Shown here piece after piece: positions 6,741 to 52,360 of a DNA stretch of 64,000 nt. Numbering within the stretch: the first letter of the stretch is position 1; every line of letters starts with the position of its first letter. Source of the DNA: a bacterium (GTDB lineage Bacteria; Omnitrophota; Gorgyraeia; Duberdicusellales; 4484-171); assembly GCA_021796115.1 (NCBI GenBank), contig JAJYOP010000001.1, positions 119,755 through 183,754 of the forward strand, written 5' to 3'. Under the pieces are notes generated by a model. It had not been told where the DNA came from and did no database searches. It saw only the letters and a list, made by a program, of their open reading frames with translations. The translations under genes were made by a program, and so were the position numbers.

Positions 6741-7000
6741 AAAACACACTTTACAGCGCAGAAGCGCTAAATCCCGCAAAAACGCAAAAAGGGAAAGCCT
6801 GAAGATTCATTTCATTCTTAGGTTTTGCGCTTTTACGGTAATTTTGTGCCTTTGCGGTGTAAATGGATTTTTTCAGAAGCCAGCGTTAAAAACCTTGACA
6901 ATTTAAGAAATTTCTGTAATTTATTTATAATACGAATAACCAGGAATCAAAGACGAGTAATCACTAATCTATTTGTGGAAATTCGTCCTTTGCTTCAGGT

Positions 7001-7062
7001 GGTTCGACTTTGCTCACCACAAGTCGTTCGTTCAGGAGGACTTTAAGCGCAGTCGAAGGGTC
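7001..7062. repeat. ~60 nt element bounded by the inverted repeat TTCGACT / AGTCGAA(GGG)
   Basis: Shares TTCGACTTTGCTCA and AGTCGAAGGGT with 42684-42735. Confidence 0.55.
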
Positions 7063-7112
7063 GTTTTGGATTCATGGCGATTCGTGTCAAAAAGGAGGAG
7101 GTGTTAAAAAGT

Positions 7113-7478
7113 ATGACTAAATTGTGTAAAATTTTATTGTGCGTTTTATGCTTAACTATGACAGGCGTGATGAATCCAGCAATTACTTTTTCCCAATCAG
7201 CAAAAGAATCAGCCGGCGAAGGGCCAGCAGTACAAGAAGCTTCAGGCGAAATAGTTTCCGTAGACGCAGCTAACCAGACAGTGGTAGTAAAAGTAAAGCA
7301 AAATGAAGCTGGGGAAACTTTCCAGGAAGTCAAACTTTTGGTTGGTACAAATACGATGATTGATAGCGAAAGTTCCAGCTTGACCATTTCCGATCTCAAA
7401 CCAGGAAACAGGGTAACAATAGTTTACGAAACGACAGCCAACGGCATAAATAAAGCGAATTCAATTATGGTTAAGTAG
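7113..7478 (+). CDS. Hypothetical secreted protein
   Basis: Start moved to MTKLCKILLCVLCL (AGGAGGAGG Shine-Dalgarno at ~7093). Has a signal peptide; no family recognised. Confidence 0.55.
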   Translation: MTKLCKILLCVLCLTMTGVMNPAITFSQSAKESAGEGPAVQEASGEIVSVDAANQTVVVKVKQNEAGETFQEVKLLVGTNTMIDSESSSLTISDLKPGNRVTIVYETTANGINKANSIMVK

Positions 7479-7537
7479 GCCATAATAAGGGGATGCATAA
7501 ATCAATTATGTTTGACAGCCCCGCTCGTTATACTCGC

Positions 7538-7600
7538 GGGGTAATTCGACTAAATACTTTTTTGACGGGAAGTCTAAAAAAGTATAGTCTCATTAAAGGA
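7538..7600 (+). promoter_or_regulatory. Conserved leader hairpin, copy 1 (GGGGTAATTCGAC - AU-rich stem - GTCTCATT - SD)
   Basis: Stem ATACTTTTTTGAC / GTC(T)AAAAAAGTAT. Homologous copies at 10370-10435 and 52291-52355. Confidence 0.6.
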
Positions 7601-7601
7601 G

Positions 7602-8078
7602 ATGAAAATGAAAAAAATCGCTTTCTTAATGGCGCTCATAATGATCTTCAGTATTTCCTGTGCTAAAAAAGCAGAAAAAAAGGTAGAAGCACCTCTTGAG
7701 TCAGAAACAATTGTTCCAGAAACAACAAATCCTGTCACACTCGAACCGCAGCCTCAAGGCACAACCATGACTACCAAAGAAGGCACATCTGTGGTAACGA
7801 AGGATGCTCTTACGCCTCAAGTGCCGGTTGCTACGGAGACCGCAGGTGCATCGGAGAAACCAACCCCAGAAAATATTCAAACTGCCTTAAAAAACGCTGG
7901 TTTATATACAGGCAATGTTGACGGAAAGATCGGCCCAAAAACAAAAAAAGCAATAGAAGCATTCCAGAAGCAGAACGGTTTAACTGCCGATGGCAAGGTT
8001 GGCCCAAAGACTTGGGATAGACTTAAAAGCTATTTAAGTAAAACAACAGAAGCTGTTCCGGCAGGAATCAAGAACTAA
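7602..8078 (+). CDS. Lipoprotein with C-terminal peptidoglycan-binding (PG_binding_1-like) domain
   Basis: Lipobox FSISC; C-terminal IQTALKNAGLYTGNVDGKIGPKTKKAIEAFQKQNGLTADGKVGPKTW. Confidence 0.75.
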   Translation: MKMKKIAFLMALIMIFSISCAKKAEKKVEAPLESETIVPETTNPVTLEPQPQGTTMTTKEGTSVVTKDALTPQVPVATETAGASEKPTPENIQTALKNAGLYTGNVDGKIGPKTKKAIEAFQKQNGLTADGKVGPKTWDRLKSYLSKTTEAVPAGIKN

Positions 8079-10899: not shown

Positions 10900-11271
10900 T
10901 TGATGATCGAAAGGCGCAAGTTTGATAGAGTATTTAAATCATCAATTGTGAGATTTAGATTTTTTAAAAGCCACCTCGGCATGTCTTCCCGTTGCGAGAA
11001 CATTTGTGAGGAAGGTATGCGCTTGGTTGCTCTCCAAAGGCTCTCACCCGGCATGATGCTTAATCTAAATTTCCAATTGGAAGAATTAGGCCCGCCAATT
11101 TTAGCTTCCGCCAAAGTGATATGGCAAAACAACAGGGATAATATTTACTATCCCTTTGCGGTAGGATTAAAATTCACCAAAATAAGTTCTGCCGACCGCG
11201 AAAGAATCGCTAGTTACATAAAAACAGCAAGCAGAGAAAACCCTTCTAATGCCCCTAAAGTCGTCCGTTAA
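10900..11271 (+). CDS. Stand-alone PilZ domain protein
   Basis: RRKFDR (RxxxR) near the N-terminus and a NICEEG variant of D/NxSxxG. Confidence 0.65.
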   Translation: MMIERRKFDRVFKSSIVRFRFFKSHLGMSSRCENICEEGMRLVALQRLSPGMMLNLNFQLEELGPPILASAKVIWQNNRDNIYYPFAVGLKFTKISSADRERIASYIKTASRENPSNAPKVVR

Positions 11272-11377
11272 TCCCTTATATTTAGCGAAAAAGAAGTTGC
11301 GAAGGCGTTTGCCTGTGTTATAATTTCCTATCTCTGCTTGACGATAAATTTCATCCCGTTACAGGGCGATTATAAGT

Positions 11378-11461
11378 GCCGAGGTAACTTCCGCCAAAGG
11401 CGGACCCGCCCACATATAAAAAATTATCGGTGGCGGGCAGTCGGTATCCGACTTCGCTACC
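11378..11461 (+). pseudogene. tRNA-Phe 5' fragment (acceptor 5' strand + D arm) interrupted by a 48-nt double-hairpin element
   Basis: GCCGAGGTAact[11390-11437]CAGTCGGTA matches GCCGAGGTAgctCAGTCGGTA of the intact tRNA-Phe 150 nt downstream. The upstream TAAGT is also shared. Confidence 0.55.
11390..11437. repeat. Double-hairpin element E, copy 1
   Basis: CCGCCAAAGGCGG + CCCGCCCACATATAAAAAATTATCGGTGGCGGG; ~90% identical to 59284-59328. Confidence 0.7.
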
Positions 11462-11526
11462 TTAAAAAATAGAGTGACTTATAATTTTGAAAATTATGTC
11501 ATCACTTAATGTGGTGGCTTTTAAGT

Positions 11527-11599
11527 GCCGAGGTAGCTCAGTCGGTAGAGCGAAGGACTGAAAATCCTTGCGTGGGGGGTTCGATTCCCTCCCTCGGCA
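11527..11599 (+). tRNA. tRNA-Phe (GAA)
   Basis: Cloverleaf folded by hand: acceptor GCCGAGG/CCTCGGC, anticodon loop CTGAAAA, T-loop TTCGATT. No encoded CCA. Confidence 0.9.
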
Positions 11600-11611
11600 C
11601 TGTATTATTTT

Positions 11612-11639
11612 AGAGAGGTTATAAAACCTCTCTTTTTTA
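11612..11639 (+). terminator. Intrinsic terminator after tRNA-Phe
   Basis: AGAGAGGTT-ATAA-AACCTCTCT followed by TTTTT. Confidence 0.85.
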
Positions 11640-11692
11640 TTGGGATTAGGCATAATTCTATATGAAAAACATACAATATCAAATTGTTAGGA

Positions 11693-11715
11693 AAATTTCT
11701 CCCAGGGAAAAATTT
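11693..11715. promoter_or_regulatory. 23-bp palindrome AAATTTCTCCC-A-GGGAAAAATTT (candidate operator)
   Basis: One mismatch between the half sites. Centred ~60 nt upstream of the inferred riboswitch transcription start. A related site lies at 12911-12931. Confidence 0.5.
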
Positions 11716-11727
11716 AGGAAAGTAGCC

Positions 11728-11758
11728 TTGCAATCTTGTTAAATATATGTTATACAAT
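11728..11758 (+). promoter_or_regulatory. Sigma70-like promoter of riboswitch cassette 1
   Basis: TTGCAA-N17-TATACAAT. A 32-nt block AATCTTGTTAAATATATGTTATACAATAAATG is identical at 52039-52070. Confidence 0.6.
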
Positions 11759-11789
11759 AAATGGTAAGGTAGTTCTTCAAAATTTATAG

Positions 11790-11937
11790 GAAAAAAGCTA
11801 ATCCTGAGAAACCAGGTGGCGCAACCCACGAACCAGAACATAGTTCGATTCGGTGGGTTGCCCGGCACCGAATTTATTCTGGTGCTGGGCAAAGCTTAAA
11901 GAGCCTAAAGCCGTAAGGCTATGGTAGTCAGCTGCCG
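11790..11937 (+). promoter_or_regulatory. GEMM-I-like cyclic-dinucleotide riboswitch aptamer, copy 1 (carries a ~66-nt insertion)
   Basis: AGCTAATCC..GAAA..GGCGCAA[insert]AAGCTTAAAGAGCCTAAAGCCGTAAGGCTATGGTAGTCAGCTGCCG resembles the Vc2 core GGCAAACC..GAAA..GGGACGCAAAGCC..GGCCTAAACC..CCGGTAGGTAGCGGGG. Confidence 0.65.
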
Positions 11938-11954
11938 TAAAATACAGAATGTTT

Positions 11955-11986
11955 AAAGCCCATAGTTTTGACTATGGGCTTTTTTG
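11955..11986 (+). terminator. Intrinsic terminator (riboswitch expression platform)
   Basis: AAAGCCCATAG-loop-CTATGGGCTTT followed by a T-run. Confidence 0.85.
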
Positions 11987-12129
11987 TTTGAGCAGGCAAT
12001 CTATGCTTGCTCTTACCGCAAGCGCAGGAGTTTGCATCCGGACCTAATCCCTTTTGCCAGAATTCTACGGGCTTTGTCCGTGCGGGTTCCAGGTTTTCAA
12101 AAATTGGCAAACTCCAGAAAATTTTACTT

Positions 12130-12158
12130 TTGATAACAAAGAAAAATTGTAATACAAT
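12130..12158 (+). promoter_or_regulatory. Sigma70-like promoter proximal to pilin 1
   Basis: TTGATA-N17-TACAAT, 25 nt upstream of the GGAGGG Shine-Dalgarno. Confidence 0.55.
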
Positions 12159-12182
12159 ATTACTATAAAAAGGAGGGTAGTA

Positions 12183-12548
12183 ATGAGAAATAAAAAAGGT
12201 TTTACGCTTATCGAATTAGTCATGGTTATTGTTATCCTGGGTATTTTGGCAGTAGTGGCCGCACCAAAGTATTTTAACCTTTCAGCATCCGCCAACCAGG
12301 CAGCAGAACAGGGTGTAGTGGGCGGAGTAAGGTCCGGTATCTCGAGTTATTTTGCGCAGAATAAAGCTTATCCTCTAACCCTGGACGCAGCTCTACCTGT
12401 TGCCTGTAGTACAGCAAACGCATGTTTTACAAACGTTCTCTCGCAGGGCGGTATCACTTCCCAATGGACAAAGGTTAGTAATACCCTTTATAGAGGGCCG
12501 ACTGGTACATCATACACTTATACTGTCGCAGATGGCTCGTTTCAATAA
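12183..12548 (+). CDS. Type IV pilin (paralog 1, canonical Gly at -1)
   Basis: Prepilin leader MRNKKG|FTLIELVMVIVILGILA with Glu+5; Cys-x6-Cys pair in the C-terminal part. Confidence 0.85.
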   Translation: MRNKKGFTLIELVMVIVILGILAVVAAPKYFNLSASANQAAEQGVVGGVRSGISSYFAQNKAYPLTLDAALPVACSTANACFTNVLSQGGITSQWTKVSNTLYRGPTGTSYTYTVADGSFQ

Positions 12549-12550
12549 TA

Positions 12551-12700
12551 ACGCGAGTTTTACATAGTCAGATAGCACTTATTGCCCCTGCAATGCTTCT
12601 TGTTTTTGCTTCCCTTGCTCCGGGAGAATAGTTGTATTCATCAGCCAAAGACCTCAAGAAAATCAGTAACAAAAGTATATTTTTCCCTGTACCCTCCTAC
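12551..12700 (+). pseudogene. Remnant of the PilX-like gene 5' end (start codon ATG changed to ACG)
   Basis: ACGCGAGTTTTACATAGTCAGATAGCACTTAT... aligns with ATGCGAGTTTTACAGAGTAAGGCTATAGCACTTAT at 17085 and 16451. Homology fades after ~130-150 nt and in-frame stops appear. Confidence 0.6.
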
Positions 12701-12910
12701 GAAATCACCATACCTACAAAGTAAGAATAGCCATAACTACTAAAAACCGCCCTTAACAGCACACCGTATTATCGGCCCCTTAGCTAAAAAATATTCCGGC
12801 AGTTGGCAAATATAAAAATGATTAAGCAATAGAATAATACCAGAGGCAGCAGACAACAAATTCGCCTCTAGGGAGTAAATCCGGCGTATACTTTATCAAA
12901 CTGTTGGGAG

Positions 12911-12931
12911 AATTTCTCTCAGGGAAAAATT
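12911..12931. promoter_or_regulatory. Second copy of the TTTCTC-N-GGGAAAAATT palindrome
   Basis: AATTTCTCTC-A-GGGAAAAATT, ~50 nt upstream of the extended -10 promoter in front of pilB. Confidence 0.45.
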
Positions 12932-12957
12932 AAAAAATAGATGGTGCAGAAAGATTG

Positions 12958-12966
12958 TGATATAAT
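12958..12966 (+). promoter_or_regulatory. Extended -10 promoter element upstream of pilB
   Basis: TGaTATAAT; no good -35 element. Confidence 0.45.
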
Positions 12967-13098
12967 AAAAATTATTCATCCAGGGAAAACCTTTAGTTTA
13001 TGAAAATAGAGCCCCGCGGACTTTAGTCTATGGGCCCAACGCGTAAAAAATTGCTCTCAAAGGCTGCTTAAATAATTATTGACGGATAGGAAGAAAAA

Positions 13099-14769
13099 AT
13101 GGCAGGCAGTTTAGAAATTTTAGATTTGTTATTAAAAGAAGGTTTAATAACTTCGGAACAGATTGAAAAGGCAAAAATAGAGACCAAACGTACCGGCCTA
13201 AGCATAGAGAGGGCTCTGGAAAAGTTAGGTTTTATTACCGAGGAAGATATCGTAAGGACACGGGCAAACGCACTGGGGATACCCTATATGGATTTGGAGA
13301 GCTGCCAAATTGACCCCAATATTATAAAACTAATTCCTGAAAGCATCGCCAGAAAATATAAAATCCTTCCTCTTTTTAAAATCGGCAACAGTCTTAATGT
13401 GGCGATGGTTAATCCCTCTGACATAGTTGCCATGGATCAGATACGAAGATTGATATCCAGCGGAGGGAACCTTGAGGTGATATTAGTAAGCCAAAAAAGC
13501 TTAGAGAAAGTTTTGGATGATTGTTTCGATACGAGCGGCGCAACCGCGAAGATACTTGAATCAATAGATAAGTCCGCCGGAAAAATAAAACAAACAGGGC
13601 TGATAGAAAGCGCCGATGAGGCGCCAGTCATAAAATTGGTCGACTCATTAATCGCCGAAGCAGTAAAAAACAGGGCTTCGGATATTCACATCGAGCCTGA
13701 ACAGGCAAATGTGCGGGTACGTTTCCGCATTGACGGAGCACTGCAAGAGATAAATTTCCTTCCTAAATCACTTCAGGATAATGTAGTGTCACGCATCAAA
13801 GTTTTATCCAAGATGGATATTGCGGAAACCCGCAGCCCGCAGGATGGCAGTATCAATATGAAGCTGGAAAACCGGGAATTAGATATCCGCGTTTCCACCT
13901 TTCCTACTATTTACGGAGAAAATGTCGTGATGCGGCTTTTAGACAAAACTTCGGTTTTGTTCGGGCTTAAGGACCTTGGGCTTTCAGAAGAGACTCTCAA
14001 CCAGTTTAATAAGCTTATCCGCCGGCCAAACGGAATAATCCTGGTTACCGGACCAACCGGCAGCGGAAAAACTACTACTCTATACGCGGCGCTTACCAGC
14101 ATCAGTTCCATGGAAAAGAATATTATTACCATCGAGGATCCGGTTGAATACGAGCTGCCTTTGATTCGGCAAACTCCCGTTAATACCAAAGCGGGGATTA
14201 CCTTTGCTAACGGCTTGCGCAGTATCCTCAGACAGGATCCGGATATTATTATGGTGGGAGAAATTCGTGACAAGGAGACTGTGGAAATAGCTATACAGGC
14301 CTCGCTTACGGGCCATCTTGTGTTTTCCACCCTGCATACCAATGATGCCGCTTCGGCGCTCACGCGTTTAATCGATATTGGCGTTGAGCCATTTTTAGTC
14401 TCAAGTTCCATCGTCGGCATTCTTGCTCAGCGTTTAGTGCGCCTGATTTGCCCAAAGTGCAAGGAGGCCTATACTCCTAGCAGCGATATTCTTGAGGAGC
14501 TTGGTCTTTCCAAACAGGAAGAATATTTACACGGTAAAGGTTGCCCAGTTTGCAAAAAAACCGGCTTTTTTGGCAGAGTGGGCATATTTGAATTGCTGGT
14601 TATCAATGAGGATATCCGTAAAATGATAGAGGCAAAAAGTTCTGCGGATGAGATAAAAAAAAGGGTCATCTCCCTCGGGATGACTACATTACGCCAGGAT
14701 GGCATTAATAAAATAAAACAGGGATTAACCACCGCCGAAGAGGTTGTTAAGGTAACAGAAATAGAATAG
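13099..14769 (+). CDS. pilB: Type IV pilus assembly ATPase (GspE/PilB/MshE family)
   Basis: N-terminal T2SSE_N-like repeats, Walker A GPTGSGKTTT, Asp/His boxes, tetracysteine CPKC...CPVC. Confidence 0.9.
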   Translation: MAGSLEILDLLLKEGLITSEQIEKAKIETKRTGLSIERALEKLGFITEEDIVRTRANALGIPYMDLESCQIDPNIIKLIPESIARKYKILPLFKIGNSLNVAMVNPSDIVAMDQIRRLISSGGNLEVILVSQKSLEKVLDDCFDTSGATAKILESIDKSAGKIKQTGLIESADEAPVIKLVDSLIAEAVKNRASDIHIEPEQANVRVRFRIDGALQEINFLPKSLQDNVVSRIKVLSKMDIAETRSPQDGSINMKLENRELDIRVSTFPTIYGENVVMRLLDKTSVLFGLKDLGLSEETLNQFNKLIRRPNGIILVTGPTGSGKTTTLYAALTSISSMEKNIITIEDPVEYELPLIRQTPVNTKAGITFANGLRSILRQDPDIIMVGEIRDKETVEIAIQASLTGHLVFSTLHTNDAASALTRLIDIGVEPFLVSSSIVGILAQRLVRLICPKCKEAYTPSSDILEELGLSKQEEYLHGKGCPVCKKTGFFGRVGIFELLVINEDIRKMIEAKSSADEIKKRVISLGMTTLRQDGINKIKQGLTTAEEVVKVTEIE

Positions 14770-14771
14770 CT

Positions 14772-15992
14772 ATGGGCATTTTTCAATATAAGGCAAGAGA
14801 TAAATTTAATCGGCCGAAAACCGGCGTACTTAGCGCCAGCTCCATAGATTTAGTGGCGGTAAAGCTAAAAAGCGAAGGTTATATTCCTATTTCCATTGTT
14901 CCCAAAAAAGAAAATGTGGCAGAGGTATTAAGCGATAAGGTTTCTCTGCGGGCAAAAGTGTCTTTTTCCGAGCTGAATGCTTTCACCCGCCAATTCCACA
15001 CGCTGCAAAAATCAGGCATTCCGATTCTTTTATCATTAACGGCGCTGGAAGAGCAGACGAAGAACCCGCTTTTTAAAAAAGTCATCGGCAAAATTACTAC
15101 TGATATAGCGGCAGGTTTAAAGCTTTCGGTTGCCTTGGAAAAATACCCCCGGATTTTTAATAAGATGTACACCAATATGGTTAAGACCGGAGAAGCCTCC
15201 GGACGTTTAGACGAAATCCTGTGGAGGCTGGTAGTATTAGGCGAACATGAGGAGCGTATCCGCATGCGTATTAAAGCTGCTACGCGCTATCCGATAATCG
15301 TGATAACCGCACTTAGCCTTGGTTTTATAGTTTTGACTACCTTTGTCGTGCCGCGCTTTGCAAAAATTTTCAGCCAATTCAAGGTAGATTTGCCTTTGCC
15401 CACCCGCATCCTTTTAGGGATACATTTTATTATCACGAAATTCTGGTGGCTGATTATAATTTTGGTTGTAGCAGGAGTTTTTGCTTTTTTGCGGATTATC
15501 CGTACCAATAAAGGCAGGCTCGTCTGGGATACTTTAAAACTAAAAATCCCTGTGTTTGGCCCTTTGATTTTAAAAATAATTGTTTCGCGCTTTACCAGGG
15601 TTACTGCCATACTTTTGTCTGCAGGTGTTTCTATCTTAGAGGTTTTAGACCTTACCTCCGAAGGCGCGGGGAATGTAGTTATTGCGCGCATAATTAATAA
15701 TATCAAAATAAGCGTTAATCAGGGCAAAGGCATGCTTGCGCCGATGAAAGAAAGCGGAATATTCCCTTCTGTCGTAATTCTGATGGTTTCTACTGGCGAA
15801 CAAACCGGCGCGATGAGTGAGCTCCTGACTCATGTTGCCGATTATTTCGACGAGCAGATAGATTATACCATTAGCAATCTGGTTGCCTTGATTGAGCCGA
15901 TTCTGATTTTTATTTTAGCTTGCGGAGTATTGCTAATGGCTTTAGGGATATTTTTACCAATGTGGAATATCATGTCGCTTTTTAAAAAATAA
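14772..15992 (+). CDS. pilC: Type IV pilus platform protein (GspF/PilC family)
   Basis: Duplicated T2SSF domain, 3 TM segments, 406 aa, directly after pilB. Confidence 0.88.
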   Translation: MGIFQYKARDKFNRPKTGVLSASSIDLVAVKLKSEGYIPISIVPKKENVAEVLSDKVSLRAKVSFSELNAFTRQFHTLQKSGIPILLSLTALEEQTKNPLFKKVIGKITTDIAAGLKLSVALEKYPRIFNKMYTNMVKTGEASGRLDEILWRLVVLGEHEERIRMRIKAATRYPIIVITALSLGFIVLTTFVVPRFAKIFSQFKVDLPLPTRILLGIHFIITKFWWLIIILVVAGVFAFLRIIRTNKGRLVWDTLKLKIPVFGPLILKIIVSRFTRVTAILLSAGVSILEVLDLTSEGAGNVVIARIINNIKISVNQGKGMLAPMKESGIFPSVVILMVSTGEQTGAMSELLTHVADYFDEQIDYTISNLVALIEPILIFILACGVLLMALGIFLPMWNIMSLFKK

Positions 15993-16079
15993 AAGAGATA
16001 ATTATTCAAAAAGTTAAACAAGGGGAGGGGTATCCTGAAATATAGATTAAGTATCTTAATATTCAAAAGGAGGGCGGTA

Positions 16080-16448
16080 ATGAGAAAGAAAAAAAGTTTT
16101 ACGCTTATCGAGTTAGTCATGGTTATTGTTATCCTGGGTATTTTAGCAATAGTGGCCGTACCAAAATATATTGATCTTTCAGGCCAAGCCAATCAGGCAG
16201 CAGAGCAGGGTGTTTTGGGCGGAGTCAGGTCCGGTATATCGACGTATTTTGCGCAGTTTAAAGCTTATCCAGCAACCTTGGATTCAGTTCCAATTCTTAC
16301 TTCCTGTAGTACCGCAAATCCATGTTTTACAAACGTTCTCTCGCAGGGCGGTGTTACTTCCCAATGGACAAAGACTAGTAATACCCTTTATAGAGGGCCG
16401 ACTGGTACATCATACACTTATAACTCTGCAGCTGGGACATTCCAATAA
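16080..16448 (+). CDS. Type IV pilin (paralog 2, Ser at -1)
   Basis: MRKKKS|FTLIELVMVIVILGILA; highly similar to 12183 and 16717. Confidence 0.8.
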   Translation: MRKKKSFTLIELVMVIVILGILAIVAVPKYIDLSGQANQAAEQGVLGGVRSGISTYFAQFKAYPATLDSVPILTSCSTANPCFTNVLSQGGVTSQWTKTSNTLYRGPTGTSYTYNSAAGTFQ

Positions 16449-16450
16449 TA

Positions 16451-16537
16451 ATGCGAGTTTTACAGAGTAAGGCTATAGCACTTATCGCCTGTGTAATACT
16501 TATTGTTTTTGCTTCTCTGGCTGTGTGGGGTGGATAG
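16451..16537 (+). pseudogene. Truncated 5' copy of the PilX-like gene (28 codons then stop)
   Basis: The first ~80 nt are identical to 17085-17165. The reading frame ends at TAG 16535-16537, at the duplication junction. Confidence 0.75.
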
Positions 16538-16552
16538 TTATGTTTGCCATTT

Positions 16553-16636
16553 TTCATTTTAGCTTGCGGAGTATGGCTAATGGCTTTAGGGGTGTTTTTG
16601 CCAAGGCGGAATATTATATCGCTTTTTAAAAAATAA
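16553..16636 (+). pseudogene. Remnant of the pilC 3' end
   Basis: Encodes ..ILACGVWLMALGVFLPRRNIISLFKK*, compared with the PilC C-terminus ILACGVLLMALGIFLPMWNIMSLFKK*. Confidence 0.8.
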
Positions 16637-16716
16637 AGGAGGTGGTGGTTCAAAGAGTCGATACAAGGGTGGTTGGAAAAATATAGAGATTAAGTATATC
16701 TAAAAGGAGGAGGATA

Positions 16717-17082
16717 ATGAGGAATAAAAAAAGTTTTACGCTTATCGAATTAATTATGGTTATTGTTATCCTGGGTATTTTAGCAATAGTGGCCGTACCA
16801 AAATATATTGATCTTTCAGGCCAAGCCAATCAGGCAGCAGAGCAGGGTGTTTTGGGCGGAGTCAGATCCGGTATATCGACTTTTTTTGCCTTTTGGAAAG
16901 CTTATCCACCAACCCTGGATAGTTCTCTCAATAGTGCCTGCAGCCCAACAAATGCATGTTTTACAAACGTTCTCTCGCAGGGCGGCATCATTTCTCAATG
17001 GACAAAAACTAGCGCTACAACTTATACTGGGCCGACCGGTACAATATACACTTATAACGCAGTAAATGGGACATTCCAATAA
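16717..17082 (+). CDS. Type IV pilin (paralog 3, Ser at -1)
   Basis: MRNKKS|FTLIELIMVIVILGILA; the first ~150 nt are nearly identical to paralog 2. Confidence 0.8.
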   Translation: MRNKKSFTLIELIMVIVILGILAIVAVPKYIDLSGQANQAAEQGVLGGVRSGISTFFAFWKAYPPTLDSSLNSACSPTNACFTNVLSQGGIISQWTKTSATTYTGPTGTIYTYNAVNGTFQ

Positions 17083-17084
17083 TA

Positions 17085-17873
17085 ATGCGAGTTTTACAGA
17101 GTAAGGCTATAGCACTTATCGCCTGTGTAATACTTATTGTTTTTGCTTCTCTGGCTGTGTGGGGAGTAGTTGTGTTTGTCGCTCAAAGGCTTCGGGCACA
17201 TACTGTAAAAGAAACATCCATCAAGGCTATTTATCTGGCGCAGGCAGGGCTTAATTATTCTTTATACCAGTATCGCCAGCGCGGAGTAGTTTTTTCAGGA
17301 AGAGTTAATCTGGATGCAAGCGATTATGCAGTAGTAAAAACAACCATCGGCGGCGGAGGAGCTTCTTCCGCCGTTATTGTTAATGCTGTAAAATCCTTTT
17401 TGGGAAATAATAATACGCAGTTACAAGGGGTAACTGTCGGAAATTTTTCGAGTTCCCCGATTACCATTAAGAAAATGATAGTGACCTGGACTTTGAATAA
17501 TAGGGCAATGCTTTCAATCCAGATTAGAGGCTTAACTGTTTGGTCCGGAAGAGCGACTTCGAGCCCTGCCGCTGTAAACATTATTAGCACCACTATACCT
17601 GCGAATAATGCTTACCCGATTAATATCCGGTTTAATAACTCGATGAGAAACACCATTATTACTTTACAATTTGTAATGAGTGACGGCACAATTACTTCTC
17701 CTTGTACGGTTTATCCGGCTCAAGGTTCTCTCTGTTCGCAAAGCCAGACACTTAGCATAAAAAGCATGGGTAAAACTACCCGTTCCGGCATATACCGGAC
17801 TGTTCAGGCTGTCTATAACGTATCTACGGGAGATGTCAACAGTTGTAGTGAAATCAATGCCACTGTACCTTAA
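17085..17873 (+). CDS. PilX-like pilus-associated protein (membrane anchored, not a prepilin)
   Basis: N-terminal TM helix followed by KAIYLAQAGLNYSLYQY, reminiscent of the PilX_N AxxAAEAGL motif. No G/FTLIE cleavage motif. Confidence 0.5.
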   Translation: MRVLQSKAIALIACVILIVFASLAVWGVVVFVAQRLRAHTVKETSIKAIYLAQAGLNYSLYQYRQRGVVFSGRVNLDASDYAVVKTTIGGGGASSAVIVNAVKSFLGNNNTQLQGVTVGNFSSSPITIKKMIVTWTLNNRAMLSIQIRGLTVWSGRATSSPAAVNIISTTIPANNAYPINIRFNNSMRNTIITLQFVMSDGTITSPCTVYPAQGSLCSQSQTLSIKSMGKTTRSGIYRTVQAVYNVSTGDVNSCSEINATVP

Positions 17874-18249
17874 AAAAAGTTTCACCTTAATCGAATTGAT
17901 TATGACTATAGTAGTGCTGGGGTTAATCGCCATTCCCTTAAGTATTTCTCTTACTGCGCAGGTAGAGGGTTTGGTTAAATCCGGACAATATACCCAAGCG
18001 CTTAATCTGGCGCGCTACGAAATGGAACGCGTTAATAACCTTCCTTTTGCAAGCGTTATTACTACCAGGTTTTCCCGGTATCAAGGTTATCCTTACGATG
18101 TGGTAGATACGGTAAGATATGTGCAGGGCGGCAGTGCGTCTGCCGAGGCGCTTAAACAGATAGCCATAAGCGTATCGAATGCAGGAACCAGTCAGGTATT
18201 AACAAGCCTTACTACTTATATTGCCAAAAACGTAAAGTATGGTTTATAA
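17857..18249 (+). CDS. Minor pilin / pseudopilin (prepilin-type N-terminal domain)
   Basis: MPLYLKKS|FTLIELIMTIVVLGLIA; start chosen at the Met nearest the leader. Confidence 0.7.
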   Translation: MPLYLKKSFTLIELIMTIVVLGLIAIPLSISLTAQVEGLVKSGQYTQALNLARYEMERVNNLPFASVITTRFSRYQGYPYDVVDTVRYVQGGSASAEALKQIAISVSNAGTSQVLTSLTTYIAKNVKYGL

Positions 18250-18790
18250 AAATAGCGCATTTACTCTTATCGAGCTGGTTATGACAATTGTGATAATCGG
18301 AATACTATCCGTAGTCGGAGCTTGGCTCATGGCTTATTTTGTGCAGGATTCTGTCTATATACCTCAGCAGCTGACTTCAGATATGGCAGGCCAAGAGGCT
18401 TTGGATATCATGATTGAAGGCGATAAGCAGGCTAAAGGTTTGCGTTTTAGCAAGGTAATCAGTAGTATAAGCAATAACCGGATTATTTTTACGAATCAGG
18501 ATGGCCAGACCATAACTTATATTTTGAATAGTGCTACCAACAAGCTTAGCCGTATAATTAACGGAACGTCTGCGCAAATTCCATATTATGCGGCCAGCGG
18601 CGTAAATATCGCCGCTGACGGCAGGGTGTTCTTTATTTATTACGATTCCAACGAAGCCATTACACGCATTGCGGCAAAAGTGCGCAGAATTGCTATTAAA
18701 CTCGTTGCTTCAACCGGTACAGGTTCTTTTCAAAACTGGAACGGAAAATCAGTTCTTGGCTCAAGTATCACAGTGCCCAGGTATCAATAG
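18239..18790 (+). CDS. Minor pilin / pseudopilin (prepilin-type N-terminal domain)
   Basis: MVYKNSA|FTLIELVMTIVIIGILS. Confidence 0.7.
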   Translation: MVYKNSAFTLIELVMTIVIIGILSVVGAWLMAYFVQDSVYIPQQLTSDMAGQEALDIMIEGDKQAKGLRFSKVISSISNNRIIFTNQDGQTITYILNSATNKLSRIINGTSAQIPYYAASGVNIAADGRVFFIYYDSNEAITRIAAKVRRIAIKLVASTGTGSFQNWNGKSVLGSSITVPRYQ

Positions 18791-18807
18791 CAAAAAAGGA
18801 GGGAAGT

Positions 18808-19047
18808 ATGGGAAAAGTAGTGCTTGTTTTTTGCGGTGCAGTTTCTTTGGTGGCGGGGATACTCTTCTTATTTTTTCCTAAAGCCCTGCAGAAAGCTAAT
18901 GACAATTTTAATAAAGCAACCAGCAAGGTGGCAGTGTCGCTTGATGAGCAGGTTTTGCGGGTGCGTGCAGGAATGGGTATATCCTGTATTTTGATTGCCG
19001 TTGGCTGTTTCTTTTTGGTTTATTGGATAATCAAAAAGCATGGCTAA
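18808..19047 (+). CDS. Small two-TM membrane protein
   Basis: GGAGGG Shine-Dalgarno, two hydrophobic helices; sits within the pilus operon. Confidence 0.5.
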   Translation: MGKVVLVFCGAVSLVAGILFLFFPKALQKANDNFNKATSKVAVSLDEQVLRVRAGMGISCILIAVGCFFLVYWIIKKHG

Positions 19048-20623
19048 ATTTTTATTCAGCCGGCGTAAATACATTCTGGTAATCGAAATAGGCAAAATAG
19101 CCTTGAAGGTAGCTTCTTTTTTGCGCTCTGCCTCAAGTTTAGAGCTATTAGACTACTCCTTAGAAAAAATAAATCCGGAAAACGATTCCTCTATCCAAAT
19201 CAGTGATTATCTGCACGCCTTTCTTAAGAAAGGCGTGCTTCCGGTAAAAGAGGCAATTTTAAGTATCGCGGATACGGATTCAGTAGCAATAAAATACTGC
19301 CAATTACCCGCCTTAAAACACAACGAGATATTAAGCGCAGCCATCTGGCAGCTAAAGGATCAGGTGCATTTTGACTTAGAAAGCGCTTATTTCGACTGGC
19401 GGGTTATTAAGGAATTCAGCGACGAAGAAGGTGCGCGCCAACAGGGTATTATTTTTGCGTTTTGCCGAAGAGAGGCAGTGGAAAAATACCTTGCTTGTCT
19501 TCGCCAATGCGGGTTGCACACTTCAGCAATTCTTGCCAGCGCGCTTAATTACGGCGAAGTCTTAAAGAGTTTAGCGAAAGATAAAACCGTTTCTTCGGAA
19601 ATAGTCCTTGACCTTGAATATCTTAATTCGGTTTTAAGCCTGTATATAGACAAGAAACTCCATTTTACCCGCTATCTGCCAGTTTCAGTGGACACCTACA
19701 CGCGTTCGTTGATAGGCACGCTTGCCTCTGAGAGGGGCAAAGTGGCTTTGACATTGAGTGAAGCTGAAGAAATAAGGGATAATATCGGAATACCTCAGGA
19801 CGCATCAGCCTTTGTTAAAGATAACCTGCAGGCAAGCCAGATTATTTCTTTAATCCGGCCGGTCCTTGAGAGCATAGTAAGGGAAACCAAACACTCCCTG
19901 AATTATTTTACCTCTACCCTTAATGCGCCGTTGCCGCAGATTATTTATACTACCGGCTTAGGGGCAAACCTGAAGAATCTGGACGCTTATCTGGCCAAAG
20001 AACTGGGTTTTCCCGTCGAAAGGCTTCCCTTTCCGGAAATTCTTTCTACCACGCGCATAAGCCAGGCCAAAGTGGAAAAAGATCGCAGCCAGCTGGTAAG
20101 CTGCGTGGGGGCTGTTTTGTTAGCCGGCCGCAATGTCAGCCTTTTAGCCGGAGGAGTAAGGATGCGTTGGGTTACGAATGCGTTAACAAAACGCTTGCTT
20201 TCTTTCTTCGCTGTCATAGGAGGAGTAGTTTTATTTCTCATGCTTATCTCTATTCTATCCATTCCCGTATATAGTTATCGCTTGAAAAAAGCCAAGAGTT
20301 TTTTTAGTGATAAAAAACAGCTTGCTTCTTTTTTTGAAAAAGCACAGACGGGAGGAAACCTGGTTTTTGAAGTTTCGCGCCAGCGGCTTAGCCTGGATGC
20401 ATTCCTGAATTTTATCAGCGAGTCTATTCCCGCTGGGCTACGCTTAAACGAGTTAGAGCTTAATCAATATCATGGCGAACTAACCCTTCAGGGGGAGGCG
20501 CGCCGGTCTCAGGATCTGGAGGCATTTTTAAAAAAGCTTGAGGCCTCAGATTATTTTTTAAGCCTTAAGCCTGTTACTATGCAAAGCCGGGATTTTAAGA
20601 TAAAATGCAAACTGCAATATTAA
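19040..20623 (+). CDS. PilM-PilN fusion (MshI-like pilus assembly protein)
   Basis: ~370-aa actin-like PilM-type region, then TM LLSFFAVIGGVVLFLMLISILSIPVY and a PilN-like periplasmic domain. Confidence 0.65.
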   Translation: MAKFLFSRRKYILVIEIGKIALKVASFLRSASSLELLDYSLEKINPENDSSIQISDYLHAFLKKGVLPVKEAILSIADTDSVAIKYCQLPALKHNEILSAAIWQLKDQVHFDLESAYFDWRVIKEFSDEEGARQQGIIFAFCRREAVEKYLACLRQCGLHTSAILASALNYGEVLKSLAKDKTVSSEIVLDLEYLNSVLSLYIDKKLHFTRYLPVSVDTYTRSLIGTLASERGKVALTLSEAEEIRDNIGIPQDASAFVKDNLQASQIISLIRPVLESIVRETKHSLNYFTSTLNAPLPQIIYTTGLGANLKNLDAYLAKELGFPVERLPFPEILSTTRISQAKVEKDRSQLVSCVGAVLLAGRNVSLLAGGVRMRWVTNALTKRLLSFFAVIGGVVLFLMLISILSIPVYSYRLKKAKSFFSDKKQLASFFEKAQTGGNLVFEVSRQRLSLDAFLNFISESIPAGLRLNELELNQYHGELTLQGEARRSQDLEAFLKKLEASDYFLSLKPVTMQSRDFKIKCKLQY

Positions 20624-21201
20624 AACAATTAATTCTAAGTCAATTGGGTAAGCTTAAGAAAGTTAACCTTAAATCTGCGAGGCAAAAAAAAATAATTGCC
20701 GCCTCGGTATTTATTATAATATTAGCTTTGGCTTATTTTCTTACGCTAAATACGCGCCAGCACTTGAGCCAAGATACGCTTTATTGGGAAGGCCGGGCAG
20801 CGCTAGCAAAAAACCTTTTGGCTAAATTCAAATCAGAAGAGGTAGTTCTTCATCTTTTAAAACAACAGGCCCGGAACTCCCAACGCATCATACGCTTGCC
20901 ACAGGGCCAAGATATAGTTCAGGCGGCCGAAGAGTACGCTCAAAGGATGAATATCCGGATAATTAATACAAAAAGTAAGGCCACGCATACCATTGTTATT
21001 GACTCCCGCGATGTCCAGGTTTATACAGTAGAGATAAAAGCCGAAGCCGGTTTTGTTAATCTCATGCGCTATTTTAACATGCTTTACCGAATTACCCCGG
21101 ATTTTGTTTCCGTAGACAGGCTAAAAGTTAGCAGAGATGCAAAAAATCAGGATAAGTTAAACGTTCAGGCAGAATTGAAGTTTTATCACTTATCATCATG
21201 A
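20605..21201 (+). CDS. PilO/MshJ-like pilus assembly protein
   Basis: Single TM, coiled-coil then alpha/beta domain. The call rests mainly on position between the PilMN fusion and the secretin. Confidence 0.5.
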   Translation: MQTAILKQLILSQLGKLKKVNLKSARQKKIIAASVFIIILALAYFLTLNTRQHLSQDTLYWEGRAALAKNLLAKFKSEEVVLHLLKQQARNSQRIIRLPQGQDIVQAAEEYAQRMNIRIINTKSKATHTIVIDSRDVQVYTVEIKAEAGFVNLMRYFNMLYRITPDFVSVDRLKVSRDAKNQDKLNVQAELKFYHLSS

Positions 21202-21674
21202 AGAAATTAGAGAAAAAAGACAGGTTAGAGCTGATTGTTACGGTTATTCTAATCATCGTTTTCATTGTTTTAGTTGCCGCCGTAAACCTGCACAAAAGTA
21301 CCGCCAGCCCGGATTACGCGCGTACTGCGCCGACAATATTTCGTACAAAGCAATACTTTAAAGACGGCGGGCAGCGTAACAAAGGCACGTCATTTATATT
21401 AAACAACTCTTACGGAGACATAGCCAGAATAAAACGCAATCCTTTTTCCTACGGCGTTTCCGGAAATAACCAGGAAGCAGGTCGCCTATCTAATTTATCG
21501 CTTACGGGAATAATCTGGAACATAACTAAGCCGTCAGCGGTAATTAATGGGCAAACCGTGGCTGTGGGGGATGTTATCGAAAATTTTAAGGTTACGCAGA
21601 TTAAGCAGGACAGCGTGGTCATAGAGAACGCAAATTCCAGGCTGGAATTGAAATTAAATCAAGGAGGGTCTTAA
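21198..21674 (+). CDS. Pilus assembly accessory protein with GspB/MshK/PilP-like C-terminal domain
   Basis: N-terminal TM. The C-terminal LTGIIWNITKPSAVINGQTVAVGDVIENFKVTQIKQDSVVIE is paralogous to the C-terminus of 24123-24596. Confidence 0.45.
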   Translation: MKKLEKKDRLELIVTVILIIVFIVLVAAVNLHKSTASPDYARTAPTIFRTKQYFKDGGQRNKGTSFILNNSYGDIARIKRNPFSYGVSGNNQEAGRLSNLSLTGIIWNITKPSAVINGQTVAVGDVIENFKVTQIKQDSVVIENANSRLELKLNQGGS

Positions 21675-21693
21675 AAAGGGAGGATATGGCTAG

Positions 21694-23310
21694 ATGAAGA
21701 AATATAAAATTATTGGAGAAATATCACTATTTTTATTCTTGCCTTATTTTTTTCTTTTCGCCGCCTCCGGCTATATTGAGTCTCTTGAGTTCAAAGATAC
21801 GGATATCAGGCAGGTTTTAAATGCTATTGCTGCCGAGGCCAGGAAGGAAGGCGACAATATAAATATTGTTGCCAGCCCTGAAGTGGAAGGGCTGGTCACC
21901 ATTGATTTAAAGAATATCGACTGGCGCACAGCATTAAAAACAATTCTTAAGACTTACAATTATGGCTATACAGAGCGTGGCGACATTATTACTGTCTCCG
22001 GCTCATTGGGGCCGTCTAGCCAGACCGGCTTAAAGATGGAATTGTTTAAATTTAAATACCTCTATGCGGATGTCGCTAAGAAACTAATCTCGCCTTTACT
22101 TTCTCCGGACGGAAAAGTTTCGGTTTTGGATATCCCGGAAGAAAGAATATATTCCAGCGGTACGGATTTATCTGCACAGAGTATGCCGTCGTCAAGCAGC
22201 ACTAACACCGGCGCAACGCCTTCGCCCACAGGCAATCCCACAGGCCAGGAAAGTCAAGGCCAGGCAAGCACAACCCATTCCAAAAGCCTGGTTGTTTACG
22301 ATACCGCGGAGAAACTTGACCAGATAAGCACTCTTTTGAGCGAACTGGACGTGATGCCAAAGCAAGTTTTAATCCAGGCGATTATTATGGAGGTAAGCCA
22401 GGATAGTCTTAAGGATATCGGTTTTGACTGGGGCACAGGCATTGGCGGTGCAACGTCAACTACCGGCCCTCTTCCAGTAAACGTACGCGGCGGAACTTTG
22501 GGCGGCCAGGGCATGAATTCCCAGGTTAACCCAAGTGTTTTTAATCCGTCAGAGAACAACGCAGCTTCATCGCCCGTGAATGGAATCTATCCCTATAATA
22601 CAGGGCTTCAGGTTCTATTCCAGAAGTTAAGCGGCACAAAATTTGAAGTAATTTTGCATGCCTTGGAAGAGGATGTCCGGACCAACACTCTTTCTAAGCC
22701 CATTATTCTGACTGCGAATAATCAAATGGCCTCTATCTTGATCGGCACGCAATATCCGATTATCCAAACCTCTTCAAGTACTCAGAGCACCTATTTAGTC
22801 GGCGGCTCGTTGCAGCAATATTTGGATGTGGGCATACAACTGAAAGTCAGGCCGCAGATTTGCGGTTCGCATGATCAATACATAAATTTGCTGCTTCATC
22901 CCATGGTCTCTACCATTAACAGTTATGCCAAAGTTTTTAGTTCGCAGCAGACGAGCCCGCTCGTAAGCCAACAGCCTATAGTCCAATATCCTATTATAGA
23001 TACCCGCGAAGCAGAGACGCAGATGTTTCTTAAAGACGGGGAAACTATTGTCATGGGCGGATTGCTTAAAAACGTGAAGTCAAACGAAGACACAGGCGTG
23101 CCTTTCTTAAGCAAGATTCCTCTATTGGGCAAGCTATTTAACCGTTCTACAAAGGATAAAAGTAAAATGGATTTGATGATTTTTATTACAGCCAAGATTG
23201 TTAAGCCCGGCGAAGTTTTGCCTCAAGAGGTCCTGGAAACAGAGACGCTTAAAAACCAATTTAAAGAGACGCAGCAAAAAGATAAAGCCGGCAGTAATTT
23301 TAAGAAATAG
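21694..23310 (+). CDS. Type IV pilus / T2SS-family secretin (PilQ/MshL-like)
   Basis: Secretin C-domain with GVPFLSKIPLLGKLF motif, N-terminal secretin-N modules, Ser/Thr/Pro-rich linker. Confidence 0.85.
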   Translation: MKKYKIIGEISLFLFLPYFFLFAASGYIESLEFKDTDIRQVLNAIAAEARKEGDNINIVASPEVEGLVTIDLKNIDWRTALKTILKTYNYGYTERGDIITVSGSLGPSSQTGLKMELFKFKYLYADVAKKLISPLLSPDGKVSVLDIPEERIYSSGTDLSAQSMPSSSSTNTGATPSPTGNPTGQESQGQASTTHSKSLVVYDTAEKLDQISTLLSELDVMPKQVLIQAIIMEVSQDSLKDIGFDWGTGIGGATSTTGPLPVNVRGGTLGGQGMNSQVNPSVFNPSENNAASSPVNGIYPYNTGLQVLFQKLSGTKFEVILHALEEDVRTNTLSKPIILTANNQMASILIGTQYPIIQTSSSTQSTYLVGGSLQQYLDVGIQLKVRPQICGSHDQYINLLLHPMVSTINSYAKVFSSQQTSPLVSQQPIVQYPIIDTREAETQMFLKDGETIVMGGLLKNVKSNEDTGVPFLSKIPLLGKLFNRSTKDKSKMDLMIFITAKIVKPGEVLPQEVLETETLKNQFKETQQKDKAGSNFKK

Positions 23311-23319
23311 AGAATAAAC

Positions 23320-24126
23320 ATGTATCGGGATTTCCTCAATTACTACGAATTAAGGAGCGTAGCTTTTAATATTACCAGCAATCCTGATTTCTTTTTTGAA
23401 AGCCGTTCTCATCAGGAAGCCATTTGTTCGTTATTATTCGGAATTCATGAAAGAAAAGGGATAATTCTGATTACCGGAGAGGTGGGAACCGGCAAAACCA
23501 CTCTCTGCAAGGCGCTTTTTAATAAACTTCCCGCGGAAGTAAAAATTTCCTTGATTCTTAATCCTTTTTTCAGCGAAGTCCAGTTGCTTAAAGCGATAGC
23601 CGAGGATTTCGGCTTAAAGGTCAGAAGCATAGAATTGCTTGATATTATCAATATTATAAACTCTTTTCTCATTAAGCTGAGTTTAAATAATGGCAACGCG
23701 GTTTTGGTAATCGATGAAGCGCAAAATCTTACTAATCAGCAGTTAGAACAAATCAGATTGCTTTCTAATTTAGAAACTAAAGACGAGAAGCTTCTGCAAA
23801 TTGTCCTGGTCGGGCAGCCGGAGTTAAAAGAAAAGATAAGCCAGTATAACTTAAGGCAGATTTACCAAAGAATCGTGGTCAAGAGCCACCTTACTCCACT
23901 TATGGATTATGAAGTTAAAGAATATATTGATTTCAGGCTGGGAAAAGCCGGCCATGGCAATGTAATTATCGCTCCGGAAGCCTACAGGATGATATACGAT
24001 TTTAGTAAAGGCATTCCCCGGCTGATTAATATTCTTTGCGAGCGGGCCATGATTTTAGGTTTCGTCCGCCAGCAGAGGATTTTGACAGAAGAGATATTTT
24101 TCAATTGCATTGAAGAGGTAAGATGA
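23320..24126 (+). CDS. ExeA/MshM-family AAA ATPase
   Basis: Walker A GEVGTGKTT, Walker B LVIDEAQNL, GQPEL motif typical of the GspA/ExeA family. Confidence 0.8.
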   Translation: MYRDFLNYYELRSVAFNITSNPDFFFESRSHQEAICSLLFGIHERKGIILITGEVGTGKTTLCKALFNKLPAEVKISLILNPFFSEVQLLKAIAEDFGLKVRSIELLDIINIINSFLIKLSLNNGNAVLVIDEAQNLTNQQLEQIRLLSNLETKDEKLLQIVLVGQPELKEKISQYNLRQIYQRIVVKSHLTPLMDYEVKEYIDFRLGKAGHGNVIIAPEAYRMIYDFSKGIPRLINILCERAMILGFVRQQRILTEEIFFNCIEEVR

Positions 24127-51968: not shown

Positions 51969-52034
51969 TACCCAAAATTATTATAACTATACTTATAAAT
52001 CAGCTATTGTCAAGGAAAATCTGGGGAAATCGTC

Positions 52035-52065
52035 TTGTAATCTTGTTAAATATATGTTATACAAT
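52035..52065 (+). promoter_or_regulatory. Sigma70-like promoter of riboswitch cassette 2
   Basis: TTGTAA-N17-TATACAAT; near-identical to 11728-11758. Confidence 0.6.
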
Positions 52066-52097
52066 AAATGACAAACCAGTTCTTTAAAATTTATACG

Positions 52098-52176
52098 AAA
52101 AAAGCTAACCTTGGGAAATCAGGGGGCGCAAAGCTTAAAGAGCCTAAAGCCATAAGGCTATGGTAGTCAGCTGCCG
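52098..52176 (+). promoter_or_regulatory. GEMM-I-like cyclic-dinucleotide riboswitch aptamer, copy 2 (compact)
   Basis: AAAAGCTAACCTTGGGAAATCAGGGGGCGCAAAGCTTAAAGAGCCTAAAGCCATAAGGCTATGGTAGTCAGCTGCCG aligns by eye with the Vibrio cholerae Vc2 core. Confidence 0.75.
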
Positions 52177-52195
52177 TTATTTTATTTGAAAGGTT

Positions 52196-52226
52196 AAACC
52201 CATAGCTTGTAGCTATGGGTTTTTTA
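52196..52226 (+). terminator. Intrinsic terminator (riboswitch expression platform)
   Basis: AAACCCATAGC-loop-GCTATGGGTTT followed by a T-run. Confidence 0.85.
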
Positions 52227-52355: not shown

Positions 52356-52360
52356 TGGCT

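Follow-up and report, generated by a model that had tools for sequence, protein, structure and literature searches.

A pilin cassette repeated in tandem

The DNA analysed here is a 64,000-nt stretch, referred to below as the window, of an Omnitrophota metagenome contig (JAJYOP010000001.1, positions 119,755 to 183,754; assembly GCA_021796115.1). It carries a type IV pilus cluster made up of pilB, pilC, the pilin, a membrane-anchored gene, two minor pilins, a pilMN fusion and a secretin gene. Two complete major pilin genes, pilin A and pilin B, stand head-to-tail between pilC and the membrane-anchored gene (hereafter the downstream gene), and a third, P0, lies 4 kb upstream of the tandem pair, in front of pilB.

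When the region 11500-18500 was compared with itself by blastn, 15906-16546 and 16549-17178 aligned as head-to-tail copies with 85.0% identity over 646 columns (E=0). A repeat search broke this pair into three pieces, spaced 644, 637 and 634 nt apart owing to small indels. A preliminary description, made from the letters of the sequence, had proposed a tandem pilin cassette of ~637 bp with pilin starts at 16080 and 16717; the starts are indeed 637 nt apart, and the ~637-nt periodicity was reproduced in our self-alignment. Each unit comprises the 3' end of pilC (~87 nt), a spacer ending in AAAAGGAGG, a complete pilin open reading frame (ORF) and about 95 nt of the next gene (Table 1).

Two gene stubs mark the joint between the units. 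Behind pilin A, 16451-16537 translates as MRVLQSKAIALIACVILIVFASLAVWGG followed by a stop, and its first 27 residues are those that begin the product of the 262-aa gene at 17085-17873. Beyond it, 16553-16636 translates as FILACGVWLMALGVFLPRRNIISLFKK and a stop, with 22 of 27 residues identical to the PilC C-terminus. Both remnants had been recognized in the preliminary description, the second as a diverged PilC C-terminus, and in this respect it was borne out. It had also placed a stop correctly at 16535-16537, but its statement that 16451-16531 is identical to 17085-17165 needs a small correction, as 80 of the 81 positions agree (16531 is T against A, a synonymous difference); the exact block is the 98 nt of 16433-16530, matched by 17067-17164. 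Judged by its boundaries and stubs, the arrangement is an in-place head-to-tail duplication of a ~640-bp pilin cassette with truncated flanking genes at the joint. It arose by illegitimate (unequal) recombination joining a point ~94 nt into the downstream gene to one 87 nt before the end of pilC. The event duplicated the ~640-bp cassette, and both pilins remained complete and kept a Shine-Dalgarno site each.

Exchange of pilin genes between strains is common, which would favour horizontal acquisition of the extra genes over duplication in place. For this locus we find such an origin scarcely credible. The extra copies are edged by fragments of the cluster's own pilC and downstream gene, and A, B and P0 are mutually nearest in a search of 5.8 billion proteins (pilin A has its best matches in pilin B, at 80%, and P0, at 79%, and the next match is at 70%). 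Furthermore, no foreign genome was found with a pilin that exceeds 85% identity to any of the three and has different flanks.

Copy number in related loci

PilC-based scans place the locus among Omnitrophota metagenome-assembled genomes, and the metagenome and genome scans with PilC returned nothing closer than 73% identity. Copy number was compared with these relatives. Among loci whose sequence downstream of pilC is available, seven (L001, L002, L003, L007, L015, L016 and L023) have just one pilin in the interval from pilC to this same downstream gene, from which it follows that the tandem state is derived. Tandem pilin pairs were found in three other Omnitrophota: L024 (ERZ25039512 contig_50884, 6587-7389), with a unit of 400 nt and copies 89.8% identical; L012 (JAHFHI010000021, 398-1371), with 581 nt and 91.6%; and L025 (ERZ23498361 scaffold_63, 7025-7805), with ~460 nt and 66%. 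Given three further loci with pairs of different unit lengths, pilin duplications appear to recur in the clade. In four of the single-pilin loci (L001, at 11600-12228, L002, L007 and L016) the pilin is separated from the downstream gene by ~650 nt.

The three pairs are like that of the window in cluster architecture, in pilin family (52-74% aa identity) and in standing head-to-tail directly after pilC. They are unlike it in unit length (~637 nt in the window) and in that no pilC stub was seen; L024, moreover, is without a third copy upstream of pilB. The first unit of L024 does run ~17 nt into the downstream gene, which gives a stub like that of the window but smaller. In a neighbour-joining tree the pilin paralogues cluster by genome, so the pairs are either independent or have been homogenised within each genome.

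These relatives also bear on the possibility that the repeat is an assembly artefact, with two strain variants stitched in tandem or a repeat expanded by the assembler. The contig comes from a short-read metagenome assembly, as its k141_ name indicates, and no independent assembly of the population was found, pilin A being encountered solely on the same contig. Nevertheless, we consider an artefact very improbable in view of the following: (i) the copies differ by 15%, and no exact repeat exceeds 110 nt, which falls short of the k=141 to be read from the name of the contig, k141_326913; (ii) the joint sequence is unique, and neither one-copy strains nor a mixture of them would supply it; the tandem path needs k-mers that link the 5' region of the downstream gene to the pilC 3' end, and these are present only if the DNA has the joint; (iii) the pilC stub and the spacer carry substitutions and indels of their own, as in an old, real copy; and (iv) three further Omnitrophota assemblies have tandem pairs at this position, in one case on a 1.19-Mb contig.

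A third cassette copy and the mosaic structure of pilin A

The third copy of the cassette, P0, had been missed in the preliminary description; its blastn identities are 84.5% with A and 79% with B. Apart from the three copies and the two minor pilins, no pilin copies or cassette fragments were found in the window. We had considered that the stub behind P0 might reach beyond the position of the tandem joint, which would have implied an independent origin. This idea was dropped, as similarity to the downstream gene past 12638 is no better than in shuffles (local alignment, p=0.68) and the right ends of the P0 cassette and the tandem unit coincide. Given that coincidence, P0 may derive from an older version of unit A, that is, it is possibly a copy of the old unit A.

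In a column-by-column comparison of the three copies, copy A switches partner along its length. Over the 5' part of the pilin (16080-16245), A and B are 95.8% identical and P0 and A 86.1%; over the 3' part (16321-16421) the corresponding values are 83.2% and 96.0%; and over the pilin end and stub (16422-16531) they are 93.6% and 72.7%. The maximum chi-square value was 33.7, with breakpoints near 16246 and 16411 (p=0.0005; 1 of 2001 permutations as extreme). Synonymous divergence (dS) between A and B is 0.14 in codons 1-56 and 0.36-0.63 downstream, and between P0 and A it is 0.33 and then 0.23. We also polarised the changes with outgroup pilins: in the 5' half P0 has the family-typical AVVA, YFNLS and GVVGG and the derived residues are common to A and B, and in the 3' part it is B that has the typical SATTYTGP, with SNTLYRGP shared by A and P0. 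Since no single tree fits all segments, at least two exchange tracts between paralogues are called for. This indicates that copy A is a mosaic produced by interlocus gene conversion among the paralogues, which could have run in either direction.

According to the preliminary description, the 5' halves of the tandem pilins are alike and the C-terminal halves have diverged, as would be expected for pilin diversification after duplication. The pattern stands: among the first 55 residues A and B differ at 2, and among the other 67 at 22. One duplication followed by divergence only, with purifying selection on the N-terminal helix, faster and possibly diversifying change in the exposed C-terminal part and no exchange, would account for this contrast. 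It would also be in keeping with a helix that is near-invariant across 117 homologues and with the ratio of non-synonymous to synonymous divergence (dN/dS, Nei-Gojobori), which lies between 0.18 and 0.62 over all segments and pairs, with 0.18 in the N-terminal part and 0.62 in the variable region. We nonetheless regard divergence only as quite unlikely. Our reasoning is that: (i) selection on the protein cannot account for zero synonymous differences in the 110-nt block; (ii) it leaves unexplained 98 identical bases that extend over a truncated, presumably non-functional stub, when identity across the spacer is just 65%, with several indels, and when, even at the divergence of the pilC stub (10.5%; 89.5% identity), such a run would be expected with a probability of 0.895^98 = 1.9e-5; (iii) it likewise leaves unexplained that the 3' part of A is 96% like P0 and that derived residues switch partner; and (iv) the recombination signal is significant and no segment has dN/dS above 1. 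Positive selection as a candidate cause was ruled against on the same values, dN/dS being below 1 in every segment, and diversifying selection is for that reason not demonstrated. Diversification as the sole explanation is thus at odds with the resemblance of A to P0 and with exact A/B blocks set against a 65% spacer; diversification after the duplication is not the whole story behind the 5'-3' contrast between A and B and is probably not its main cause.

If segments have moved between copies, one may ask whether the locus works in the manner of pilE/pilS in Neisseria, with programmed variation at one expression site, the other copies serving as donors and exchange being frequent. The exchanged or variable parts do include the exposed C-terminal region, and Omnitrophota are thought, in the passages of PMC10066038 drawn on here, to use type IV pili for host-cell contact. 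In Neisseria the pilS copies are silent, being without promoter, ribosome-binding site and 5' coding part, and number up to 19, and variation requires a G-quadruplex (G4) structure upstream of pilE (PMC4534519). In the window there are only three copies, all complete genes with AAAAGGAGG as Shine-Dalgarno site, an ATG, a leader peptide and the full N-terminal helix; no G4 motif (G3+N1-7 x4) was found on either strand of 11000-18000; and there are few tracts, of which some are old (the one between P0 and A is at 96%, not 100%, identity). Lacking silent-cassette and G4 features, the locus does not appear to be a Neisseria-type system, and we rate programmed variation as decidedly unlikely. What the two have in common is non-reciprocal transfer of pilin segments between copies, some of the donors in Neisseria being arranged in tandem (PMC4534519); in the window there is no sign that exchange is frequent.

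The pilin proteins

P0, A and B all score above the curated cut-offs of PF07963 (21.2 bits) and TIGR02532 (16.3 bits), and each has a class III signal, with a short basic leader, a predicted cleavage site before F, the motif FTLIEL with Glu at +5 and a hydrophobic alpha-1 helix. A profile built from 120 homologues matches solved major pilins, namely MshA (2.9e-15), Geobacter PilA-N, PilE and Thermus PilA5 (1.1e-11), with the matches spanning the N-terminal ~60 residues alone. The AlphaFold2 (AF2) model of pilin A (predicted local distance difference test score, pLDDT, 89) is confident and shows a long helix at the N-terminus, with helices placed at 9-25 and 34-60 and short strands at 103-115. 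A Foldseek search of the PDB with this model gave no match at E<=0.001; the best match, a weak one, was PilA5 (6xxe_A; E=9e-3, template modelling (TM) score about 0.4, 33% identity). A Cys76/Cys82 pair is conserved and present in all three intact ORFs. Measured at 56 positions with a conservation of 90% or more among 117 other homologues, P0 deviates once, A twice and B four times, and by this measure P0 is the most family-typical of the three pilins.

The residue at -1 is Ser in A (16095-16097) and B (16732-16734) and Gly in P0 and in 110 of 117 homologues. Ser is also found at this position in the first minor pilin of the cluster (17878-17880) and in the second tandem pilin of L025, and the second minor pilin has Ala (18254-18256). 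As a minor pilin of the same cluster has Ser, the peptidase may accept this residue.

The leader upstream of P0

P0 is preceded by a structured leader whose match to the model of the cyclic di-GMP (c-di-GMP)-I riboswitch, RF01051, reaches 32.1 bits (E=1.6e-4 in a 500-nt search), short of the gathering score of 35. The leader has a clear paralogue at 52016-52225: blastn blocks of 84% and 83% connect the two, and a promoter-like block, the P1 hairpin, a P2 half and the terminator are shared. The P1 hairpin region (11790-11824) and the P2 half (11890-11945) of the P0 leader are separated by a structured insertion of ~65 nt (11825-11888), which brings the Rfam score down to its 32.1 bits. The P2 half differs from 52129-52184 at 6 of 56 positions, one of them in the aptamer and five in the tail that follows ...GCCGT. 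The leader closes with a terminator hairpin (11955-11982). A check for mobile repeats returned no other copy of the 65-nt insertion in the window. None of nine related loci has a riboswitch at gathering score, and the P0 leader is without counterpart there. The leader further along the window contains a clear c-di-GMP-I riboswitch (52093-52178, 65.5 bits) with a terminator and lies upstream of an ORF of 111-113 aa (52355-52696), which has a signal-peptide-like N-terminus and no Pfam match.

Closer to the P0 start is a sigma-70-like promoter match (Table 1). Promoter-like matches are not in excess in the region, with 19 against 16.9 +/- 4.1 in shuffles. As their spacers have no promoter-like site, A and B are probably on the pilBC transcript, or else use another promoter type. 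The copies thus probably differ in regulation, with A and B in the context of the pilBC operon and P0 standing alone behind a riboswitch-like leader and a promoter-like site.

A 38-nt element, TATCAAAYTGTTRGGARAATTTCTCYCAGGGAAAAATT, occurs twice with 34 of 38 positions identical, at 11677-11714, just upstream of the promoter-like block of the P0 leader, and at 12894-12931, ~170 nt upstream of pilB, where it adjoins TGATATAAT, an extended -10-like sequence. It may be a shared regulator-binding site. Other c-di-GMP-linked parts around the pilus cluster are a stand-alone PilZ protein (10903-11271) and the MshEN domain of the assembly ATPase (13099-14769). A PAS histidine kinase with a C-terminal PilZ domain is encoded at 24645-26606, and a similar kinase lies upstream of the cluster of L024.

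Neighbouring genes

The domains of the assembly machinery (T2SSE, T2SSF, PilM_2+PilN and Secretin, by Pfam) all fall within 13099-23310, and the pilins therefore stand alongside their machinery. The ATG of the downstream gene overlaps the second stop of the pilin (TAATAATG). Syntenic homologues in L003, L023 and L024 are 33-34% identical, and beyond this the gene is conserved by position only. It gave no Pfam match at E<=5 other than DUF2861 (0.1), no meaningful NCBIfam match and no PDB sequence match below 0.4, and no G/FxxxE prepilin motif was found in the gene; its earlier label "PilX-like" finds no support in these searches. The PilM-PilN fusion is a single 527-aa protein (19040-20623), and the same fusion is present in L003, L024 and L025. 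Directly 3' of the secretin is an AAA_22 ATPase gene (23320-24126) that scores 273 bits against the XrtA/PEP-CTERM-associated ATPase model, for which the cut-off is 324; the secretin of L024 is likewise followed by an AAA_22 ATPase gene.

Table 1. Features of the pilin cassettes and of the surrounding pilus cluster, in window coordinates
Feature	Position	Strand	Basis or remark
Tandem unit A, 643 nt: pilC 3' end, spacer with Shine-Dalgarno site, pilin A, downstream-gene 5' stub	15906..16548	+	blastn
Tandem unit B, 630 nt: pilC 3' stub, spacer, pilin B, first 94 nt of intact downstream gene	16549..17178	+	
Last 87 nt of pilC, left end of tandem unit A	15906..15992	+	repeat boundary from blastn
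Duplication joint: downstream-gene sequence (to ~16546) abuts pilC 3' sequence (from ~16549-16553)	16547..16552		alignments; microhomology no longer resolvable
Downstream-gene 5' stub, 28 codons then TAG from a 2-nt indel	16451..16537	+	
pilC 3' stub, 27 codons and stop, without indels or Shine-Dalgarno site	16553..16636	+	89.5% nt identity to 15907-15992
Pilin A: intact 122-aa prepilin, Ser for Gly at -1	16080..16448	+	PF07963 31 bits, TIGR02532 19.2 bits
Pilin B: intact 121-aa prepilin, Ser at -1	16717..17082	+	PF07963 31.7 bits, TIGR02532 20.3 bits
Exact A/B block, 110 nt, candidate gene-conversion tract	16119..16228 (= 16756-16865 in pilin B)	+	longest exact match
Pilin A segment grouping with P0 rather than B	16246..16421	+	maximum chi-square breakpoints 16246/16411
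Exact A/B block, 98 nt (pilin end and downstream-gene stub), candidate gene-conversion tract	16433..16530 (= 17067-17164)	+	
Dispersed cassette copy P0: Shine-Dalgarno site, pilin, decayed downstream-gene stub	12168..12638	+	blastn
Pilin P0: intact 121-aa prepilin, canonical Gly at -1	12183..12548	+	PF07963 37.4 bits, TIGR02532 34.6 bits
Decayed downstream-gene stub after P0: ACG for ATG, early TAG, indels	12551..12638	+	~72% identical to 17085-17178
Structured leader upstream of P0, paralogue of leader 52016-52225, with ~65-nt insertion 11825-11888	11709..11984	+	cmscan, blastn, fold z=-6.7
Sigma-70-like promoter match TTGATA-17-TACAAT, 25 nt upstream of P0 start	12130..12158	+	10/12, consensus match only
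Downstream gene, 262 aa, N-terminal hydrophobic anchor	17085..17873	+	conserved synteny
pilB-type assembly ATPase, N-terminal MshEN domain (c-di-GMP-binding type)	13099..14769	+	Pfam T2SSE 6.8e-140, MshEN 3e-18
pilC-type platform protein	14772..15992	+	Pfam T2SSF 2.9e-50
Two minor-pilin-like genes, 3' of downstream gene as in relatives	17833-18249, 18239-18790	+	PF07963 matches; synteny
Prepilin peptidase pilD (A24 peptidase)	4757-5599		

Discussion

We consider it likely that duplication of the cassette, the making of a third copy and gene conversion have together given rise to three intact pilin variants. The scenario that best fits the spacer would begin with an old tandem duplication, after which the old A would have been copied upstream as P0, and B would recently have overwritten two parts of A. 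The outcome would be three variants of the major pilin with a common N-terminal helix, differing mainly at residues 57-82 and in the C-terminal sheet. As to what might be gained, we can only speculate that the variants would provide alternative surface properties of the pilus, for example in adhesion specificity or in escape from pilus-binding phages.

Several points weigh against this account. The duplication is known from a single short-read assembly, and the exact pilin A protein occurs on one 283-kb contig (ENA ERZ27233560, k141_326913, and its NCBI copy). Conversion was deduced from three short sequences, which offer some 105 informative sites. Different ages for the duplication would follow from the pilC stub (89.5%) and from the spacer (65%), and the history is accordingly more complicated than two tracts. 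Processing of the Ser(-1) pilins A and B by the prepilin peptidase is uncertain. Finally, no plus-strand sigma-70-like match was found in the spacers before A or B, and the three copies are presumed to be expressed.

The nearest comparisons are the Omnitrophota pairs described above and lineage-specific pilA duplications such as that of pilA2 in Xylella taiwanensis. PilA5 of Thermus thermophilus (111 residues) is the best structural match of the pilin A model, though a weak one (TM about 0.4), and is matched by the profile as well; PilA4 and PilA5 differ from the pilins described here in being distant paralogues and not recent tandem copies. Work by Neuhaus et al. from 2020 reportedly found that these small paralogous pilins build distinct filaments with one machinery. 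In Xylella taiwanensis, a lineage-specific tandem duplication of pilA2 lies inside the pilus cluster, and in Xylella fastidiosa the roles of pilA1 and pilA2 differ, one bearing on pilus number and location and the other on twitching, according to the passages of PMC8176220 used here. This is likewise a tandem duplication of a type IV major pilin gene, but in another phylum and another pilin family, and those passages report neither flanking gene stubs nor a conversion mosaic (PMC8176220). Myxobacteria also carry several full-length major-pilin paralogues per genome. In Stigmatella aurantiaca the four pilA genes Sa1-4 are full-length paralogues that differ in assembly and retraction when expressed, as stated in the relevant part of PMC3776727. 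The myxobacterial proteins are larger and have an unrelated C-terminal domain, and that part of the source describes neither a duplication joint nor a conversion mosaic (PMC3776727).

Set beside these systems, the locus is a real, lineage-specific duplication and a neat instance of a process already familiar, rather than a system of a new kind. A bolder possibility is that it is a small, self-contained recombination repertoire, with ongoing conversion among expressed pilins that would reshuffle exposed parts of the fibre within populations of a host-attached nanobacterium and one copy switched by a leader derived from a c-di-GMP riboswitch. Type IV pili are described as near-universal in Omnitrophota, with a proposed role in host attachment, in the passages drawn on from PMC10066038; pilin copy number is not addressed in those passages, nor in those of a 2026 preprint on complete Omnitrophota genomes. 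We think such a repertoire unlikely, but if it were true, an environmental, non-pathogenic lineage would have a cassette-free way of varying the surface of its pili.

Duplication of pilins and exchange between the copies are already well known in cultured bacteria, and what this locus adds is a clean, datable example from an uncultivated phylum. The two gene stubs at the joint reveal the route that the duplication took, and together with the spacer they provide an internal neutral yardstick against which later conversion is exposed. Along with the three other tandem duplications, the locus suggests that the copy number of the major pilin has changed repeatedly in Omnitrophota. Pilin trees of the group will mislead unless recombination between paralogues is considered, and short-read binning may mishandle loci of this kind.

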